From contig CAVQMY010000033.1 in the NCBI GenBank assembly GCA_963713705.1, forward strand, positions 20,203-84,202: 64,000 nt of DNA. Reading direction: 5' to 3'. Origin of the DNA: an uncultured Verrucomicrobiae bacterium. Its GTDB lineage: Bacteria; Verrucomicrobiota; Verrucomicrobiia; Palsa-1439. The position numbers and the translations under genes are program-made. This document shows, piece after piece, positions 8,436 through 22,053 of the stretch. A model generated the notes under the pieces. That model did no database searches. It saw only the letters and a list, made by a program, of their open reading frames with translations, and was not told the DNA's origin. The number at the start of each line of letters is the position of its first letter. The stretch's first letter is position 1.

Positions 8436-10220
8436 GTGAACCGGATTCGTCTCCTCTCCGAGCAGGTCGCCAACCAGATCGCCGCCGGCGAGGTGGTCGA
8501 GCGGCCCGCCTCCGTCGTGAAGGAGTTGGTCGAGAACTCGCTCGACGCCGAAGCCCGACGCGTCACGGTCACCATCAAGAACGGCGGTCGCTCGCTCATC
8601 AATGTCGCCGACGACGGGTTTGGCATGAGCCGCGACGACGCGCTCCTCGCCCTCGAACGTCATGCCACCAGCAAAATTTCCAGGGCCGAAGACCTGCACA
8701 GCATCACGTCACTCGGGTTTCGCGGCGAAGCCATCCCGAGCATCGCCGCCGTCTCACGGTTCACGCTCACCAGCCGCGAACGGGGCACGTTGAGCGGGAC
8801 GCAAATCGAAATGGCCGGCGGAAAGATCCTGTCCGTCGCCGACATGGGCGCGGCGGAGGGAACCGTCGTGGAAGTGCGCAACCTGTTCTTCAATCTGCCC
8901 GCCCGCCGCAAGTTCCTGCGCTCGATCCCGACCGAGACCGCGCACATCGAACACATCGTCACCCTCTGCGCGCTCGCGCATCCCAATGTCGCGTTCAAAC
9001 TCGCCGTCGATGGCCGCGAGATCTTCAACCTCGCGCCGACCAACGACCTGGCGGGCCGCCTCCGGGAACTTTACGGCGTGCAACTCGTCGAGGAACTCCT
9101 CGCCGTCGAGTTGTCCCACGGCGATGTCCGCGTCACGGGCTTCATCGGGAAACCAGGCGTCAGCCGCGCGGATCGCCGTCAACAGCATCTCTTCGTCAAT
9201 CAGCGCCCCGTCGAAAGCAAGGGCATCAACTACGCCCTCCTCGAAGGTTATCACACCGCCCTGATGAAGGGAAAATTCCCCGTGACATTCCTGTTCATCG
9301 ACATCGACCCCGAGTTGGTCGACGTCAACATTCATCCCGCCAAACGCGAGGTTCGCTTTCGCGATGAATCGGCCGTGCGCCAGTGCGTGATCGATGCCGC
9401 CCGCGCCGCGCTGGAACCGGTGACGGCGGGACTCCATCCGGTGCAACGGGAAGGCTGGCCGCAGTCCCAGCAACGCATTGTCGGGCCACGACCGCATTGG
9501 TCGCCTGCGCCGCCATTGGCGTTGCGGGGAGAGGCCCCGGCGTCACCGTCCTCGCAACAATCCAATTTGATCGAGGTGCCAAGAAATCGCGGGGAGGGCG
9601 AAGCTCCTGCCGAGCCGCAGTTTGAGGTTCAAACGGAAGAAGGTTCGTGGCGGATTCTCGGCGTGATCGGCCAGCTCTACGTGCTCATCGAATCGCCCGA
9701 AGGCCTTGTCCTGATGGATCAGCATGCCGCGCACGAACGCGTCTTGTTCGAGAAGATGCTCCGAGAATTCGAGACCGATTCCGCCCCCGCGCAAAAGCTC
9801 TTGCTGCCTCTGACGCTTGAACTCGACGCCCGCGATGCCGCCTTCCTCCACGCCAACCAGAAGACGTTGCACAAGCTGGGCATCGGTGTCAGCGAGTTCG
9901 GCGAGAAAACGTTTCTGGTCGACGCATTGCCGCCGTATTTCCCGACCGCCAATCTGGCCCAGACCTTCCGCAATATCATCGACGAGTTGCGCCAAACGGG
10001 CGAAGAGATCCACACCCGGCGATTGACCGAGGACAAGATCGCCACCACCGTCTGCCGTCACGCGGTGAAAGCCCACGATCCGTTGCGCGGCGAGGAGTTG
10101 CGCGCGTTGCTCCAGCAACTTCACCAGTGCGAGTTGCCTTATACCTGTCCCCACGGTCGCCCGACCATGATCCAAATGTCCTACGCCGAGTTGGAGAAGA
10201 AATTCGGGAGGAAGGTATGA
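8436..10220 (+). CDS. mutL: DNA mismatch repair protein MutL (endonuclease type)
   Basis: GHKL ATPase N-terminus (AAGEVVERPASVVKELVENSLDA) and C-terminal endonuclease motif DQHAAHERVLFE. Confidence 0.95.
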   Translation: MNRIRLLSEQVANQIAAGEVVERPASVVKELVENSLDAEARRVTVTIKNGGRSLINVADDGFGMSRDDALLALERHATSKISRAEDLHSITSLGFRGEAIPSIAAVSRFTLTSRERGTLSGTQIEMAGGKILSVADMGAAEGTVVEVRNLFFNLPARRKFLRSIPTETAHIEHIVTLCALAHPNVAFKLAVDGREIFNLAPTNDLAGRLRELYGVQLVEELLAVELSHGDVRVTGFIGKPGVSRADRRQQHLFVNQRPVESKGINYALLEGYHTALMKGKFPVTFLFIDIDPELVDVNIHPAKREVRFRDESAVRQCVIDAARAALEPVTAGLHPVQREGWPQSQQRIVGPRPHWSPAPPLALRGEAPASPSSQQSNLIEVPRNRGEGEAPAEPQFEVQTEEGSWRILGVIGQLYVLIESPEGLVLMDQHAAHERVLFEKMLREFETDSAPAQKLLLPLTLELDARDAAFLHANQKTLHKLGIGVSEFGEKTFLVDALPPYFPTANLAQTFRNIIDELRQTGEEIHTRRLTEDKIATTVCRHAVKAHDPLRGEELRALLQQLHQCELPYTCPHGRPTMIQMSYAELEKKFGRKV

Positions 10221-13852: not shown

Positions 13853-16177
13853 TTACAAACTCGCGGCGACCTTCTCGACCGTATAGCACTCCAGGACGTC
13901 GCCTTCCTGGATTCCCGGAAAATTCTCCAGGCGCAACCCGCATTCGGAACCGGCCTTGGCCTCGCGCACGTCATCCTGGAAATGCTTCAGGCTGGCAATG
14001 CGGCCCTCATACTGGACGGCTTTGCGTCGTAACAACCTCACGCGGGCACTGCGCGCGATCCGACCATCCGTGACCACACACCCGGCCACCGGCGACCCCT
14101 TGGAAAGCTCGAACACCTTGCGGACTTCGGCATGACCGATGACGGCTTCCTTCGATTCCGGCTCCAACAGACCTTCCATCGATTCTTCCACCTGCTCGAT
14201 CAATTCATAGATGATGGTGTGCAACTTGATCTGCACGTTGGCGTGTTTGGCCGTGTCGGTGACGCCGCTCTCGGTCTTGACCCGAAATCCGATGATGACG
14301 GCTTCCGAGGCGCTGGCGAGCAGGACATCGTTTTCCGTGATGCTCCCGACCGCGCCATGGAGAATGTCCAGTTCGATCTTGTCGCTCTTCAGTTTGCGCA
14401 GAGAATCCGCGATGGCTTCCAGGGAGCCTTGCACATCGGCCTTGAGCACGATGCGCAGCTTCTTCATTTCGCCATCCTGGATCTGGGTCATCAGGTCTTC
14501 GAGCCGTGAACCGCGCGGTTGCGCCGTGGTTGATCCGCGGGCGTCCTGCTGGCGTTGTTCGCTGAGGGCGCGCGCCTCCTTGTCGGTCTTCATGACGTTG
14601 AACTCGAGGCCGGCCTCGGGCAGGCCGGAGAGCCCGACGATCTTGACGGGCGTCGAGGGCGGCGCTTCCTTGATGCGGTGGCCCTTATCGTTGACCAGCG
14701 CGCGAATCTTTGCCCAGAACGGCCCGCAGACGATGCCGTCCCCCACGTGAAGTGTTCCCTTGCGCACCAGGACCGTAGCCGTTGGTCCCAAGCCGGGCTC
14801 GATTTGCGCCTCGATCACATTGCCTTTCGCCGGCACCTTCGGGCTGGCTTTCAGTTCCATGATCTCGGCTTGCAACAAAATCATCTCCAGCAACGTGTCG
14901 AGACCCTTCTTCGTGGTCGCCGAAACGTCGACGGTGATGGTGTCGCCACCCCACGATTCCGCGCTCAGACCGTGTTCCTGCAACTGTTTCTTGACGCGAT
15001 CCGGGTTCGCCGTCGGCAGGTCGCACTTGTTAATGGCGACGAGAATCGGGACCTGCGCTGCTTTGGCGTGGCTGATGGCTTCGATCGTCTGGGGCATGAT
15101 GCCGTCATCTGCGGCCACGACCAGCACGGCGATGTCCGTGACGTTGGCGCCCCGGGCCCGCATTTTCGTGAATGCCTCGTGGCCGGGGGTGTCAAGGAAC
15201 GTGATGGTCTTGCCACCCGGAAGCGATACCACACTGGCGCCGATGTGCTGGGTGATGCCGCCGCTTTCGTGAGCGGCGACATCCGTCTTACGTATTGCGT
15301 CGAGCAACGAGGTCTTCCCATGGTCGACGTGGCCCATCACCGTGACCACGGGCGGGCGTGGCTTCAGATCGGTCGCTTGTTCGCCGACTTCCAGGGGTTC
15401 GACCTTCCGGGGCGGGGCGTGAACCATACCGGCCCCGCGCTCGCGCTTTTCCAACTCGAAGAGGAACCCGTGCCGCTCGCAAATCTTGCGGGCAATGTCT
15501 TCCCCGACGGTCTCGGTAAGATTGGCAAAAACGCTCATCTCCATCATCTCGGACAACAGCACGTGCGGCCTTACGCCGATGCGCTGCGCCAGTTCGCGCA
15601 CCACGACGGGCGGCTTCATCTGGATAACCTTGTTGCCCTTGTCATCAACAATGAAAGCGGGCTGTGACGGTCCCACTGGCAACGGTACGGGCTTGGGGGC
15701 CGGCGCCAGCGGCGGTGTTGGACGCGGAGCTGTCGTGATCTTCACCGTTGGCTGCGACCTCGGTGGCGTCGTCGGCTTCGGCGGCACAGCGGCGGGCGGA
15801 GACTTGGGCGGAATGGCCGGTGGTGGTGGTGACACCACCGCACTCGTTGCCACTTTCACCACCGGCGGTTTGGCAGGTTCGACAATGACCTTCGGCGGTT
15901 CGGTAGCCACGGGTGGTGGCGGCAACGTGGCAACCGCCGTCGTTGCCTCCGTCTTCCCGGCGAGTTCAGGCGCAGGGGAAGCCGGCGCGGCGATTGGTTC
16001 GGGTGCCGGAGGGGGCGGTGGAACGTACCCGTATTCCTTCTCGATCGATTCGGCGGTGATCTTATCGACCGTGCTGGAGTGACTCTTGACGGGATAATTC
16101 ATCACGTGCAGCTTGTCGATCATTTCCTTGTTCGACAGGCCGCACCGCTTGGCCAGATCATGTACCCGAATACTCAT
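13853..16177 (-). CDS. infB: Translation initiation factor IF-2
   Basis: G-domain motifs [20 protein letters not shown] and NKCD, with a Pro/Ala-rich N-terminal region. Confidence 0.97.
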
Positions 16178-17624: not shown

Positions 17625-17664
17625 CGGGAGGGGTTTACAATGCGCCGCGAATGAACCTGCCCAA
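17625..17664 (+). repeat. Repeat A (40 bp), identical to 21933-21972
   Basis: cgggaggggtttacaatgcgccgcgaatgaacctgcccaa. Consists of 26 nt upstream plus the first 14 nt of pgsA. No mismatch found by manual comparison. Confidence 0.9.
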
Positions 17665-18280: not shown

Positions 18281-18740
18281 GCGACTGATCAAGTTTCTGG
18301 CCACCGGGTTCGGCGTCGGCTATCTGCCGGTCGCGCCGGGCACGGACGGCTCGGTCGTCGGCGTCGGGTTCTGGTGGGCCCTGAACCAGGAACATCACCC
18401 GTGGCTGCGTGTCGTGTTTCTGGTGCTGGCCATCGGATTTGCAGTCTGGTGCGCGGGCGAAGCGTCCGACATCATGCACCATCCCGATCCACCCAGTGTG
18501 GTCATCGACGAGATCGTGGCCATGCCGCTCGCGCTGATCGGGCTGGGAACAAGGTGGTGGCAGGTCGCCGTGGGCTTCGCGATGTTCCGGCTCTTCGATA
18601 TCTGGAAGCCGTCCCCCATTCGCGACGCGCAGGATTTTTCCGGCGGGATCGGCATCGTGCTGGACGATCTGTTGGCGGCGGCTGCCGCGTGCGTGACCAC
18701 TCACGGCATCGTGTGGCTGGTCAGTTGGATGAAGCATTAA
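18273..18740 (+). CDS. pgpA: Phosphatidylglycerophosphatase A
   Basis: FGVGYLPVAPGT, IDEIVAMP and FRLFDIWKPSPIR motifs. Overlaps the pgsA end by 8 nt. Confidence 0.85.
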   Translation: MRERLIKFLATGFGVGYLPVAPGTDGSVVGVGFWWALNQEHHPWLRVVFLVLAIGFAVWCAGEASDIMHHPDPPSVVIDEIVAMPLALIGLGTRWWQVAVGFAMFRLFDIWKPSPIRDAQDFSGGIGIVLDDLLAAAAACVTTHGIVWLVSWMKH

Positions 18741-18994
18741 CCCCGAAGGCTTTCGGGGCTGAGCTTCGCGAGAAACTTTTCGAGCTGTCCGGTGTCGAAA
18801 TTGGCCAGCACGTGGCCGTCGATCACAATGGTCGGCACGTAACGCTGGCCCGATAACCGCTGCATTTCCTCGTCGGCAGCAGGGTCGTGGCCCACGTCGA
18901 TTTCCTGAAACGGGATGTCATGCGCCTTCAAATATTCCTTGGCATCGGCGCACCACCCGCACCATTGGCGTGTGTACAGCCTTACGTCCCTCAT
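18737..18994 (-). CDS. Glutaredoxin-like protein (CGWC)
   Basis: 85 aa with YTRQWCGWCADAKEYL and GQRYVPTIVIDG (the cis-Pro region of the thioredoxin fold). Confidence 0.8.
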   Translation of the reverse strand: MRDVRLYTRQWCGWCADAKEYLKAHDIPFQEIDVGHDPAADEEMQRLSGQRYVPTIVIDGHVLANFDTGQLEKFLAKLSPESLRG

Positions 18995-19007
18995 GATTTT
19001 TCCTTGT
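18937..19007 (+). repeat. Repeat B (71 bp), identical to 21983-22053
   Basis: The first 58 nt of the grx CDS (minus strand) plus 13 nt upstream are duplicated without mismatch next to serA. Confidence 0.9.
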
Positions 19008-19125
19008 TAATAGAATGCACAACATGACAGGAAGGTTTCACGAGGAGAAGATTTTTAGAGTATTATAGTTTTTAGAAGTTAATTTGGAAAAGTATTTAAG
19101 AAGGGGTTCCAGAGAGGTTTTGTCG

Positions 19126-19153
19126 TTGACAGATCAGACGTTTTTGCTAAGCT
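19126..19153 (+). promoter_or_regulatory. Candidate sigma70-type promoter for the islet rep operon
   Basis: TTGACA (19126-19131), a 16-nt spacer, then TAAGCT (19148-19153), about 130 nt upstream of rep. Pattern match only. Confidence 0.2.
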
Positions 19154-19282
19154 GTGCTTATTAGTAAACGACGTGTTCGTTCGGACTCTTACCGAAAATT
19201 ATTGCCGCAGATTAGCGACGTCGGACGCTGAAAAAGCGTTGTTAGGCGAACACCAAACAATCATCAATTGTGAGGTGTGTTT

Positions 19283-20104
19283 ATGCGGCAGTTTGATTTT
19301 CCGTCGGCGGGAATACATGTGGTTTACCGTCGGGATGACCTCTTCCTTTCCGCCGATCTGCTGTCTGATTTTGAAGACCACTACGTCGGCAGAGTTTCCG
19401 AGCGTGTCCTTCATGGGATGTTGGTGATCGCGCAGAACGTCGAGGCGATACGAGCGGCGGCCCATGTGAAGGGGGATGAAGCGACCTTCGGTACTTGGAC
19501 ATTTAAGCTACCCACGGATGAATTGGAGGTCCATATCCGGGACGTGTTGACCGATTCGGCGTTGTTTCGGCGCAAGCTGGTGCGGTTGACGGGTACTTGC
19601 CTGACGTGGGTGGTTGAATGGGGCAGGCGTGGCGGGCGCATCCATGGGCATTATGCGGCGGATGGGTGGCAGGATTTGGAGGCGGTCGAGAAAGCGAAGC
19701 AGGTGGGGAATGGGTTTGTGGGGCGTTGCAATATTAAGCGTCTGGGCGCTCCAGGCTATATGTGGAAGGAGATGGGCAAGGGGGCAGGCCGTCGGGGGCT
19801 AGGTTTTCATCTGATGGGTTCGCACGGGGATTTCAAGGGGCGTTCGGTCATGCGGGATTTCCTCATTGATTCGCCAATGGCGGAGTGTCGTCGTCTGGCG
19901 TGGGGAACGCGGTTTACGGGGGAGCCGCATGGTCGGATTTGGGAGCGGGCGAGGGATTTGTATGCCGCGTGGTCGGCGGGAAACTTGGACTTGGGGGCCG
20001 ATTACGATCGATTTCGCGGGGGGATGTCGGGCGGGGGAGATGCGTGGGAGGGGGACAATCAGTCGTTGGATGCGGGCTTTAACGTGGAGGATTTTGAGCA
20101 ATGA
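19283..20104 (+). CDS. HUH-superfamily rolling-circle replication initiator-like protein
   Basis: Three ordered motifs: FGTWTF (motif I, FxTLT-like), VVEWGRRGGRIHGHY (motif II, HxH) and GYMWKEMGK (motif III, YxxKxxxK with a single Tyr). ATG at 19283 is preceded by TGAGG. Confidence 0.5.
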   Translation: MRQFDFPSAGIHVVYRRDDLFLSADLLSDFEDHYVGRVSERVLHGMLVIAQNVEAIRAAAHVKGDEATFGTWTFKLPTDELEVHIRDVLTDSALFRRKLVRLTGTCLTWVVEWGRRGGRIHGHYAADGWQDLEAVEKAKQVGNGFVGRCNIKRLGAPGYMWKEMGKGAGRRGLGFHLMGSHGDFKGRSVMRDFLIDSPMAECRRLAWGTRFTGEPHGRIWERARDLYAAWSAGNLDLGADYDRFRGGMSGGGDAWEGDNQSLDAGFNVEDFEQ

Positions 20105-20370
20105 AAAGGGAAAAGAGGAAATATTGTGCGGGTTGCGGTGTTGAAATTACAGGGGGCCTTGTAGCGGGTGGCCCGTCGGAGGAGGAGCAGTACTGCGCGC
20201 AATGTGGCGGTGCGGAAGTGTTGCAGGCGCAGGAGCTTTGCGACGAAGTACAGGGGTTGTTGCCGAATGCGTGGTGTGGGACTAGGGCACGGCTCTTGGC
20301 GTCGGGTCGTGCGTCTGGGAAGGGCGGCGGGTCCCCTGTTCACAGGGTGCGGCCCCCCGCGAGACAATAG
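20101..20370 (+). CDS. Small zinc-ribbon protein (CAGC...CAQC), coupled to rep
   Basis: ATGA overlap with the rep stop. Ends at TAG 20368-20370. The same frame continues for 33 codons to a second copy of the Rep C-terminal tail (stop 20467-20469). Confidence 0.45.
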   Translation: MKREKRKYCAGCGVEITGGLVAGGPSEEEQYCAQCGGAEVLQAQELCDEVQGLLPNAWCGTRARLLASGRASGKGGGSPVHRVRPPARQ

Positions 20371-20691
20371 AGGGGTGTTTGTGTGCTGTGTTTCTGTACC
20401 TGGGCTGCTTACGAGGGGGAAGACCAGTCCTTGGACGCGGGTTTTAACGTGGAGGATTTTGAGCAGTGAGGTGGGCGTTGCGGATGCGGGGTGGCGAAGA
20501 CCCCGCGCAGGCCCGCATGCGGGACGCGCGGGGCTACCGATAAGGAGGGGTGTCTGCTTGCAGGGTGTTGTTGTAAATGGTGCCGTTGGGTTCGTTGCGT
20601 CGCGTGTTGGACAGGAGCCATCGGAGCGCAGCAATTGGTGTGACAGAACTGCGAAAACATCTGGACGCTGCGCACGTTAATGTGAAAAACG

Positions 20692-20955
20692 TCAATCCCG
20701 TTCTTCGACATCGTTAATTGTGTCACCCTGTTGGAATGCCTCAGCGAAACATCGAAATTGACTGGGGAAACAATGATAGAACTGATGGCAGGCTCGGCAC
20801 AGGGTGACTCCATTATGAACGTCGTGTCGAAGGGCGGGATTGACGTTTTTTCCGATGATGTGCGCGGCGTCCAGATGTTTTGTCGTGCCGCAGTTCTGGC
20901 ACAGCCAATTGTCTCGCTCCATTACGGCTCTTGTCCAACGTTGATTGTCGTTCAT
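20692..20955 (-). CDS. HNH endonuclease (87 aa)
   Basis: CQNCG...LDAAHII...HNGVTLCRACH, the HNH/zinc-finger signature. AAGGAG lies upstream of the ATG at 20955. Confidence 0.75.
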   Translation of the reverse strand: MNDNQRWTRAVMERDNWLCQNCGTTKHLDAAHIIGKNVNPALRHDVHNGVTLCRACHQFYHCFPSQFRCFAEAFQQGDTINDVEERD

Positions 20956-21190
20956 CCGCTCTACTCCTTTATTTTCAAGGTAGGGAGTAGAGTGTATGAA
21001 CGATCGTAGGGAGCGACGCTTGGGGTCTTTGTCGTTTCGTGTTGTTGGCTGAGGGGCTGCGAGAGCGCTAGCCCGCAATAGAAAAGAAGCGAATGTTTAT
21101 ACGGGTAGAATGTCGATTGTTTTTGGTTGTTATTTCTCGAAAACGGGGGACAATCAACCTGAAGTCTGGCCGAACGGATTGGGAGTAATA

Positions 21191-21613
21191 ATGCTAACGC
21201 CAAGAGAAAACGGAAAACGATGTAGGCTCGCCCTTGGAGAATTTCTCAAACCGCCATTGGGACCGTATGCGCTGGACGGCAGGACGCTGATTTTCAATGG
21301 CAGAGAGATATTCGTGCTCTACTCTAGTTTCCAAGTAAGTACATCGCAATGGTGGTATGGCATTCAGCAAGAGGAATGGGAAGAGTGGGGGGACAGATTT
21401 GTGGCATTTCTGATGAGAGACCGAAGAGATGTGAATTTCGTGATGCTGGACCCGAAGGAGTCGGGGACTCTACTTGGCAAGTGCCGCCACGACTACAACG
21501 GACAAAAGGAAATGCATATCCGAATACGGGAAGGCGGAAGAGTGTACTTCGTTGAGTGGCAGAACTTTTCTTTGGCTGGCAGAGTGCAGCCGTTGAAGGT
21601 TTTGTTGACGTAG
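21191..21613 (+). CDS. Hypothetical protein (140 aa), no recognisable family
   Basis: GGAG lies 6 nt upstream of the ATG. AT-rich codon usage unlike the flanking core genes. Trp-rich segment SQWWYGIQQEEWEEW. Confidence 0.45.
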   Translation: MLTPRENGKRCRLALGEFLKPPLGPYALDGRTLIFNGREIFVLYSSFQVSTSQWWYGIQQEEWEEWGDRFVAFLMRDRRDVNFVMLDPKESGTLLGKCRHDYNGQKEMHIRIREGGRVYFVEWQNFSLAGRVQPLKVLLT

Positions 21614-21649
21614 TTAGACGGCTATATTGGATTTGAAACGGAGAAAAAC

Positions 21650-21865
21650 ATGACAATCATCACCACGGTCGGAGAATTGCAGAAAGAGTTGAAAGGGCTA
21701 CAGCGAGACACGCCGATTGCCGTTGCCGTACCTGAAGAAAGACAAACGGCAGTAGGTGAAAATTTCACTGTTGGGAAGTCTGGTCTATGTAATGAAATGA
21801 AACTCGCAGTCGGCGTGGAAAGAACAGGAGATGCCGCCAAGGTTTGGATAATCGGGGTCAATTGA
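21650..21865 (+). CDS. Hypothetical protein (71 aa)
   Basis: GGAG upstream. 36 nt downstream of the previous ORF on the same strand. Confidence 0.4.
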   Translation: MTIITTVGELQKELKGLQRDTPIAVAVPEERQTAVGENFTVGKSGLCNEMKLAVGVERTGDAAKVWIIGVN

Positions 21866-21932
21866 CTGGTTGCTAGAGCACGAGAGCGCTAGCGTCTCGT
21901 AACGAAAAGCATCCTGTTTGAGATTCTGTTTA

Positions 21933-22053
21933 CGGGAGGGGTTTACAATGCGCCGCGAATGAACCTGCCCAAGATCATGTTCCCTTGGCATCGGCGCACC
22001 ACCCGCACCATTGGCGTGTGTACAGCCTTACGTCCCTCATGATTTTTCCTTGT
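21933..22053 (+). repeat. Chimeric joint A'(21933-21972)-filler gatcatgttc-B'(21983-22053)
   Basis: The pgsA start region is fused head-to-head to the grx start region, with the intervening 1.27 kb absent. Leaves truncated pgsA' and grx' reading frames. Confidence 0.9.

Follow-up and report, generated by a model that had tools for sequence, protein, structure and literature searches.

The window analysed here is a stretch of 64,000 nucleotides from an uncultured Verrucomicrobiae bacterium (contig CAVQMY010000033.1; positions are counted from its first letter), and the question it raises is what a gene resembling the replication initiators (Reps) of phages and rolling-circle plasmids is doing inside a chromosome, and how it came to be there. 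An earlier note on this DNA had proposed that the gene, here called rep, encodes an initiator of the HUH class within an integrated element of about 3 kb. Reps of this class cut one DNA strand at a specific short sequence, remain attached to the 5' end and are able to join it again to a 3'-OH, and HUH proteins are the driving enzymes of four kinds of transposon (IS200/IS605, IS91/ISCR, Helitrons and Replitrons) and of numerous plasmids and viruses. The route by which an initiator of replication turns into an integrase or a transposase is an evolutionary question, and the family described below sits between both roles, with a phage- or plasmid-type Rep, a target word like a nick site, transposon-like ends and a strictly chromosomal lifestyle. 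The answer that we consider probable is that positions 19008-22053 are one insertion of a small, site-specific mobile element of the rolling-circle type, driven by its own Rep.

Borders of the insertion and its Rep

The borders of the insertion and the rep gene are defined by the following features.

18737-18994, minus strand: grx, a glutaredoxin gene (Glutaredoxin PF00462, E 2.6e-19)
18937-19007: left copy of a perfect direct repeat of 71 nt, ending in TTTCCTTGT
19000-19024, plus strand: left junction and candidate Rep nick site, host TTCCTTG(T) followed by the element left end TAATAGAATGCACAAC
19283-20104, plus strand: rep open reading frame (ORF), ATG start, 273 aa (alternative GTG start at 19277, 275 aa)
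19487-19504: Rep motif I, FGTWTF (F69-F74)
19610-19654: Rep motif II, VVEWGRRGGRIHGHY (V110-Y124, including H121 and H123)
19754-19780: Rep motif III, GYMWKEMGK (G158-K166, including Y159)
21973-21982, plus strand: right terminus GATCATGTTC
21983-22053: right copy of the direct repeat (grx 5' end, truncated), beyond which the original intergenic DNA between grx and serA continues

The two copies of the 71-nt repeat are 100 % identical, have a spacing of 3046 and consist of the ribosome-binding site and the first 58 nt of grx. That 3,046 bp were inserted in the window follows from close relatives which carry the exact empty site: in L025, L027 and L028, whose flanks are 93.5 % identical to the window over 10 kb, a single 71-nt copy is present, grx and serA are directly adjacent, and the sequence (...CATGATTTTTCCTTGTGCATCG...) is exactly the left flank of the window plus the 71-nt repeat plus the right flank, with the target word reading ...TTTCCTTGTGCATCG... 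within it. The insertion at 19008-22053 comprises the element proper (19008-21982) and one 71-nt copy of the host duplication. Nucleotide 19008 is the first base of the element, the left junction reading TTTCCTTG^T-TAATAGAATGCACAAC, and grx is intact at this junction. No integrase or transposase domain was detected in the five window ORFs scanned against Pfam and NCBIfam. The exact borders, the repeat and the empty sites in relatives bear out the view of the earlier note that an element of about 3 kb is integrated in this Verrucomicrobial chromosome.

The rep gene has a GAGGTG ribosome-binding site 7 nt 5' of its ATG, and the 273-aa ORF and the three HUH motifs were found where the earlier note had placed them and are conserved in homologues. 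From a search of 5.8 billion proteins we assembled a close-family set of 22 relatives (43-100 % identity), none of which carried a functional name (0/22) and most of which lay on short metagenome contigs. Invariant in the alignment of 22 homologues (43-85 % identity) were T73, R119, H121, E163, G165 and K166, and at least 90 % conserved were F69, E112, Y159 and K162; position 159 was Cys in one of the 22, and the only substitution of H123 was Q. The HxQ variant is known from other Reps. The middle residue of the HUH motif is Gly (R119-I-H121-G-H123), and the protein has a single catalytic-type tyrosine (Y1) in Y159-M-W-K162 (YMWKEMGK). When the alignment was widened to about 30 distant relatives, down to 17 % identity, T73, H121, Y159 and K166 were still invariant, and the distant members show the motifs in textbook form (FWTFTF, GRxHxHxV and YLAKYLSK). 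A DSPMAECRR block is also conserved. On these alignments, chance is ruled out as the origin of the three motifs, and Rep is under clear purifying selection. The family is rare, since only 32 clusters were recovered when all 1.84 billion cluster representatives were searched exhaustively with a profile.

The AlphaFold2 model of Rep (predicted local distance difference test, pLDDT, 81.8; predicted template modelling score, pTM, 0.80) has motif I on strand 68-74, which is followed by helix 85-103, by strands 107-113 (with E112) and 120-126 (with the HUH residues), and then by a helix, a strand and the helix 159-164 with Y159 at its N-terminus. Motif I and the HUH motif lie on adjacent strands, and this predicted order of secondary structure is that of the Rep class. 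A Foldseek comparison of the model with BFVD, a collection of predicted viral structures, gave 61 matches at E <= 1e-3 (best 2.3e-6), and the named ones were microvirus 'Replication initiator protein' entries. The C-terminus of Rep is an acidic tail (FNVEDFEQ): residues 250-273 form a conserved acidic stretch, GDAWEGEDQSLDAGFNVEDFEQ, that is predicted to be disordered and recalls protein-docking tails such as that of SSB; by this analogy it may recruit a host replication protein.

Direct profile searches of the libraries gave no match for the window Rep, and hmmscan returned no hit above the gathering cut-off of PF23343 (REP_ORF2-G2P); no PADLOC match and no Pfam or NCBIfam transposase match was found, and a search of PDB with the family profile was also empty. 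The link was made through the family instead. Among its distant members two were above the PF23343 gathering cut-off (P0049 and P0052) and three just below it, the close-family profile finds P0049 and P0052 at E about 4e-4 (1.84 billion proteins), and hhalign aligned the 22-member close family with the PF23343-positive proteins at 99.2 % (E 1e-19) with all three motifs in register. By this profile comparison, the window Rep is homologous to bona fide PF23343 members. Judged by motifs, predicted fold and profile match together, the protein is a divergent single-tyrosine HUH initiator, and the class assignment of the earlier note thus stands on the conserved motifs, the order of secondary structure, the BFVD matches and the 99.2 % profile match.

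Related insertions and conserved parts

All four matches in species-representative genomes were Verrucomicrobia metagenome-assembled genomes (MAGs). Together, MAGs and metagenome contigs yielded at least 12 related insertions with one or both junctions readable, at about five loci.

5' end of grx: the window, L001/L005, L002, L007, L009, L011 and L015
3' end of the citrate synthase gene gltA: L012/L013, L019 and L020
Other target loci: L004, L014, L010 and L024

Relative to the target word, the orientation of the element did not vary among the insertions examined, and CTTG preceded the left end in all of them. The longer host word before the left end was TTTCCTTG(T), with the exceptions of L014 (TTGTCCTTG) and the most distant member, L024 (GGGCTTG). 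On the element side the left ends share the consensus TA.TAAGATGCACAA, starting TA.TA(A/G)(G/A)ATGCA(C/T)AA. As judged from this conservation, the candidate for recognition and nicking by Rep is the left junction, at about 19000-19024 in the window. A pairing of 4-5 bp is possible between the target TTGT and a conserved ACAA 11 nt into the element, a length that does not allow its evaluation. Of the 16 occurrences of TTCCTTG in the 64-kb window, among them TTCCTTGTT at 16124 and 52061, the grx site alone carries an element, which means that these 7-9 bases do not suffice to determine the choice of target.

The host duplications have their right edge fixed at the target word and are variable in length, from 57 to about 210 nt (57, about 68, 71, 71, 76, 80, 96, at least 95, 121, about 124, about 144, 179 and about 210 nt). 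They are host-specific, with the copies within each genome 98-100 % identical while orthologous targets differ by about 20 % between hosts, and at the grx site alone six different edges were found in seven insertions. L001 and L005 carry the same element (99.96 % identity) with identical flanks and the same right terminus, GAACATGTTT, and the duplication in L005 is 86 nt longer than that in L001. As a consequence of the duplication the target gene remains whole: in the window a complete grx lies at the left junction, and in L012 gltA is preserved at the right junction because the 121-nt duplication starts 7 nt beyond the citrate synthase stop codon.

Right ends at the grx locus and in L004 and L014 read (C/T/G)ATGTT plus 0-3 nt. 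In the window, an exact 40-nt copy of the start of pgsA (21933-21972, plus strand; source 17625-17664) lies 10 nt inside the right terminus and carries the ribosome-binding site and start codon; no such match is expected by chance (0 expected), and an independent contig (run X1) spanning 21787-22009 corroborates it. The counterpart in L002 (8709-8754) is a 46-nt, 96 % copy of serA-internal DNA (source 9295-9340). The sources of these patches are 0.5-1.3 kb away, and the patches are host-templated and look like template-switch products of the joining process. No second nick-like word was found downstream of the source of the pgsA patch, and no microhomology or common motif was found at the borders of the host patches or at the variable left edges of the duplications.

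At the citrate synthase 3' end of L012 (4118-8707), L019 and L020 (263-448), related elements form tandem arrays and some copies are truncated. In L012 the gltA end is present three times, the copies differing in identity (84 %, 98 %), and in L019 two different Reps (P0017 and P0022) stand in tandem. L010 (5776-7810) has a canonical left junction, CATTTTCCTTGT|TAGTAATTAGTAAGATGCAC, downstream of a gene of the AstE/AspA family; its right end abuts citrate synthase and no flanking repeat of at least 18 nt was found. L010 may be a rearrangement between two insertions.

Three further parts of the window element recur in its relatives.

20692-21078, minus strand: HNH endonuclease gene, maximal ORF 128 aa
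20588-20960: imperfect palindrome of about 370 nt, one of its arms formed by HNH coding sequence (central and 5' part)
21862-21906: right-end block, GTTGCTAGAGC-ACGAGA-GCGCTAGCG-TCTCGT-AACG, a hairpin with a 6-bp stem

The likely start of the HNH gene is the ATG at 20955, which gives 87 aa and has GGAG 8 nt upstream. The product has the motifs CxxC...DAAH...N...CxxCH and matched HNH_2 (E 2.5e-4, 21.3 bits against a cut-off of 21) and phrog_144 (E 1.4e-11). An HNH gene lies beside rep in L002, L007, L008, L010, L011, L012, L015, L024 and the P0040 contig, the pairing being kept in L024 where the Rep is 29 % identical, and the minimal member of the family, L015, has no genes besides rep and HNH in its 1,720 nt.

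The other arm of the palindrome is an inverted pseudo-copy overlapping the HNH 3' end. Its fold has an energy of -102 kcal/mol for 301 nt (z = -13.6), with 121 pairs conserved in 6 elements, 19 of them with compensatory changes, and the best-conserved DNA of the element is 20564-21053 (73-78 % identity), above that of rep. The palindrome is a candidate single-strand origin or structural element; the compensated pairs would be equally explained by concerted evolution of an inverted duplication.

The right-end hairpin (GAGC-ACGAGA-loop-TCTCGT-AACG, or GAGCACGAGAG..TCTCGTAACG) lies 60-100 nt from the right end and was found in the window, L001, L002, L003, L012, L019, L020 and L024. Its variants keep the stem with other loops or with one G-T wobble, and the block is 93-100 % identical even at 29 % Rep identity. 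A second hairpin-like sequence, containing GCGAGAGCGCTAGC and related to the loop of the right-end hairpin, is present at 21040-21075 upstream of the HNH gene, and also in L002, at 7900.

GC (guanine-cytosine) skew on the Rep-coding strand was +0.28 to +0.46 in 11/11 elements, with flanks of about 0, and persisted through the HNH gene, which is oriented the other way. Such a skew agrees with asymmetric replication of this strand or with its frequent presence in single-stranded form.

Proposed mechanism and rival explanations

In the Rep-driven explanation that we favour for the window insertion, Rep would nick the plus strand (the G-rich, Rep-coding one) at CTTG^T, the nick site of the integrated state being composed of the host word and the element left end, as in IS91. 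Host polymerase and helicase would displace or copy the plus strand, whose 5' end would carry the bound Rep, and at a new TTTCCTTG word, acting as a chromosomal pseudo-origin, Rep would join the element 5' end to the host 3'-OH to give the precise left junction. The element 3' end (...CATG-TT) would not be joined by Rep, and would be attached by DNA synthesis or repair on the host DNA upstream of the nick, a synthesis that would re-copy 57 to about 210 nt and sometimes patch in nearby host sequence; an HNH nick of the opposite strand, or the cutting of a flap, might possibly help. The right junction appears not to be made by Rep because it combines a defined terminus and 0-3 filler bases with a variable host position and no motif or microhomology, and it is from these features that we infer the chemistry of right-end joining.

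Several points weigh against this explanation. The route of 3'-end joining and the role of the HNH protein are guesses, the host-templated patches lie just inside the terminal ATGTT and not at the junction itself, and the variable left edges had no microhomology or motif among the junctions examined. A circle lacking the duplication would have a poor nick site, because the right end of the element does not supply the TTTCCTTG half-site. The window element and L007, in different hosts, share the same 71-nt edge, which fits an inherited duplication at least as well as fresh synthesis, and the very strong GC skew would be better explained by plasmid-like rolling-circle replication over a long time than by occasional transposition. 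As to the protein, the Foldseek comparison with PDB was not significant and gave only weak ferredoxin-like matches (including the Rep domains of SIRV1 ORF119, a circovirus and a geminivirus), and the window Rep had no match in Pfam, PHROG, NCBIfam or PDB sequence searches. No free circular contig and no IMG/VR, plasmid or phage relative was found, and no nicking, covalent adduct, circle or single-stranded form was observed, the read data being too thin.

The searches for free forms bear on the rival explanations as well. tblastn against 72,556 plasmids (PLSDB) and 50,697 phages found no relative of Rep, a scan of IMG/VR found none, and no circle or joint junctions were present in low-depth contigs assembled from public runs. 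Circular contigs of about 3 kb, which the earlier note had looked towards, did not appear: none of the fetched contigs with family Reps had a terminal overlap, and among the contigs and collections searched every copy of the element was chromosomal.

These results count against an integrative rolling-circle plasmid, the main rival, which we regard as rather unlikely. Here the circle would be the element plus one copy of the duplication, replicating autonomously from an origin ...TTTCCTTG^TTAATAG... and entering or leaving the chromosome either by Rep exchange between nick sites or by a RecA crossover (Campbell type) in the 57-~210 nt, so that the duplication would be carried along and not made at each insertion. 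Only a circle containing the duplication has the full conserved nick site, a GC skew of this size is usual in replicons that exist for part of the time as a displaced single strand, and the giant palindrome could be a single-strand origin. The 71-nt edge common to the window and L007, the difference of just 3 nt between L011 and L007, the diverged extra gltA-end copies of L012 (84 %, 98 %) and the occurrence of tandem arrays also speak for it. Set against this, besides the missing circles and the missing plasmid, phage and IMG/VR relatives, the copies are 100 % identical and host-specific in most genomes despite the divergence of about 20 % between orthologous targets, the same element in the same host has two duplication lengths (L001/L005), and seven grx-site insertions have six different edges. 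An event of de novo capture would still be needed to start the process, and the chief difference between the plasmid and the favoured model is the frequency with which a new duplication arises.

The remnant or satellite of a single-stranded DNA phage, such as a microvirus- or inovirus-like prophage no longer in possession of its structural genes, would account for the best structural matches of Rep being microvirus replication initiators, for the inclusion of phage G2P/ORF2 proteins in Pfam REP_ORF2-G2P and for the strong GC skew. We judge it very improbable, as no capsid, coat or morphogenesis gene was present in any element examined, the minimal member is 1.7 kb with rep and HNH only, no phage or IMG/VR match was found (the sole PHROG match in the five ORFs scanned being the HNH gene), and ends, target word and hairpin are conserved as for a self-contained element. 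Perfect direct repeats overlapping a gene end are in turn the classic signature of an integrase island, and a genomic islet moved by a tyrosine or serine integrase or by Xer encoded elsewhere, with Rep only replicating or decaying, was therefore considered. This explanation was rejected as extremely improbable: no integrase or other recombinase gene was present in any element examined, Rep is under clear purifying selection, and the repeat has one fixed edge and a length of 57 to about 210 nt that differs between identical elements. Moreover, one and the same 8-nt word forms the fixed edge at loci that are unrelated, and it agrees with the nick sites of rolling-circle systems.

The kind of event that the Rep-driven explanation calls for is a known one, an HUH Rep mobilising or integrating DNA at a nick-like word. 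Reps of the pC194 type nick within CTTGATA (PMC10378824), and the junction core of the family, CTTG^(T/A)T, resembles this site. IS91 inserts its origin end next to CTTG/GTTC, the host word being needed for later transposition, and its termination is often imprecise, giving one-ended transposition (PMC13181058). The family shares with IS91/ISCR an HUH enzyme, orientation-specific insertion, a short host word that completes the functional origin end, subterminal palindromes, and a precise origin end opposite a sloppy one. It differs in that IS91 transposases have two tyrosines and belong to another family, whereas the window Rep has a single Tyr; IS91 makes no target duplication, whereas the family elements have 57 to about 210 nt; the family uses a longer target word, of about 8-9 nt; its elements have an HNH gene and a giant palindrome among their core parts; and they are present in one or few copies per genome, at fixed loci. 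With the Reps of phiX174, pC194 and PF23343 the window Rep shares the order of the three motifs and a predicted fold matching microvirus initiators, but it lies below every library threshold, has the single Tyr in YMWKEMGK and has extra conserved N- and C-terminal regions, and its family was found only chromosomally integrated and on no plasmid or phage record.

In behaviour, with no sequence relationship claimed, there is also a likeness to Replitron-1, a Chlamydomonas HUH transposon with orientation-specific insertion, imprecise right ends and target duplications of variable length (PMC10288648). Both have a Rep without a helicase domain, a short target, a right-end hairpin and right ends with extra host sequence; Replitron-1 differs in being eukaryotic, in its 2-nt RG target, in its short terminal direct repeats and in having no HNH gene. 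HUH integration at nick-site mimics is further known for AAV (adeno-associated virus) Rep at AAVS1 and for TrwC at oriT-like sites (PMC5714925), which are side activities of a virus and of a conjugative plasmid, whereas integration appears to be the normal state of the present family and comes with a long duplication.

No description of the window family was found in the literature searched and no model of it in the libraries searched. The features that are not reported together are a phage- or plasmid-type Y1 Rep, an obligatory HNH gene in a giant palindrome, an 8-9-nt target word and duplications with one fixed edge; long, variable duplications of this one-edged kind are an unusual insertion signature. 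We suggest, tentatively and with less than even confidence, that these elements form an undescribed class of bacterial HUH elements, defined by a Y1 Rep plus HNH, a single strand transfer at an 8-9-nt pseudo-origin, joining by template switch, long, variable and gene-preserving duplications, and occasional host patches. If true, this class would be the bacterial counterpart of the 'fuzzy end / variable TSD (target site duplication)' behaviour of Replitron-1 and some Helitrons. The duplications of the family could also provide a bacterial model, tractable by experiment, for the imprecise right-end joining of eukaryotic HUH transposons. Similar islets in Verrucomicrobia and poorly sampled phyla have probably been missed, because the family is invisible to Pfam, PHROGs, NCBIfam and PADLOC.

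Leader, accessory genes and a relic of rep

The remaining features of the window element lie in the leader upstream of rep and between rep and the right-end block.

19008-19282: leader, 275 bp, GC 0.43 against 0.59-0.60 in the flanks
19052-19060 and 19069-19077: short repeat in the leader, TTTTTAGAG and TTTTTAGAA, flanking AGTATTAT at 19059-19066
19090-19062, minus strand: promoter-like site, TTTCCA-17-TATAAT, 10/12 matches, reading outward toward grx
19037-19066, plus strand: promoter-like site, TTCACG-18-TATTAT, 9/12 matches, reading toward rep
20101-20370, plus strand: ORF2, 89 aa, four-cysteine and zinc-ribbon-like, its start overlapping the rep stop (ATGA)
20406-20469, plus strand: relic second copy of the rep 3' end, encoding ..AYEGEDQSLDAGFNVEDFEQ*
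21110-21865, plus strand: variable cargo, two ORFs (167 aa, 21110-21613; 71 aa, 21650-21865)

The AT-rich leader of 275 bp and the short repeat flanking AGTATTAT are present as the earlier note had described them. Its assignment of a replication origin to AGTATTAT did not hold: AGTATTAT with its TTTTTAGA repeat is absent from the left ends of the related elements L001, L002 and L004, and in the window it falls in the -10 boxes of both promoter-like sites. These sites are consensus matches, not proof of promoters. An outward promoter is plausible, since after the insertion grx no longer adjoins its native upstream DNA.

No family match was found for the 167-aa and 71-aa cargo ORFs in the libraries searched, and the minimal relative L015 has no cargo ORFs. 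A scan against Rfam gave only chance sub-threshold microRNA (miRNA) matches.

The zinc-ribbon matches of ORF2 were weak and below cut-off; most relatives have a small ORF at this position, and its sequence is not conserved. Behind ORF2, the relic at 20406-20469 is 84 % identical to the last 64 nt of rep (20041-20104), and it is nearer to the rep 3' ends of L014, L015 and L002 (81-84 %) than to that of the resident rep, which suggests that ORF2 was gained by recombination between related elements.

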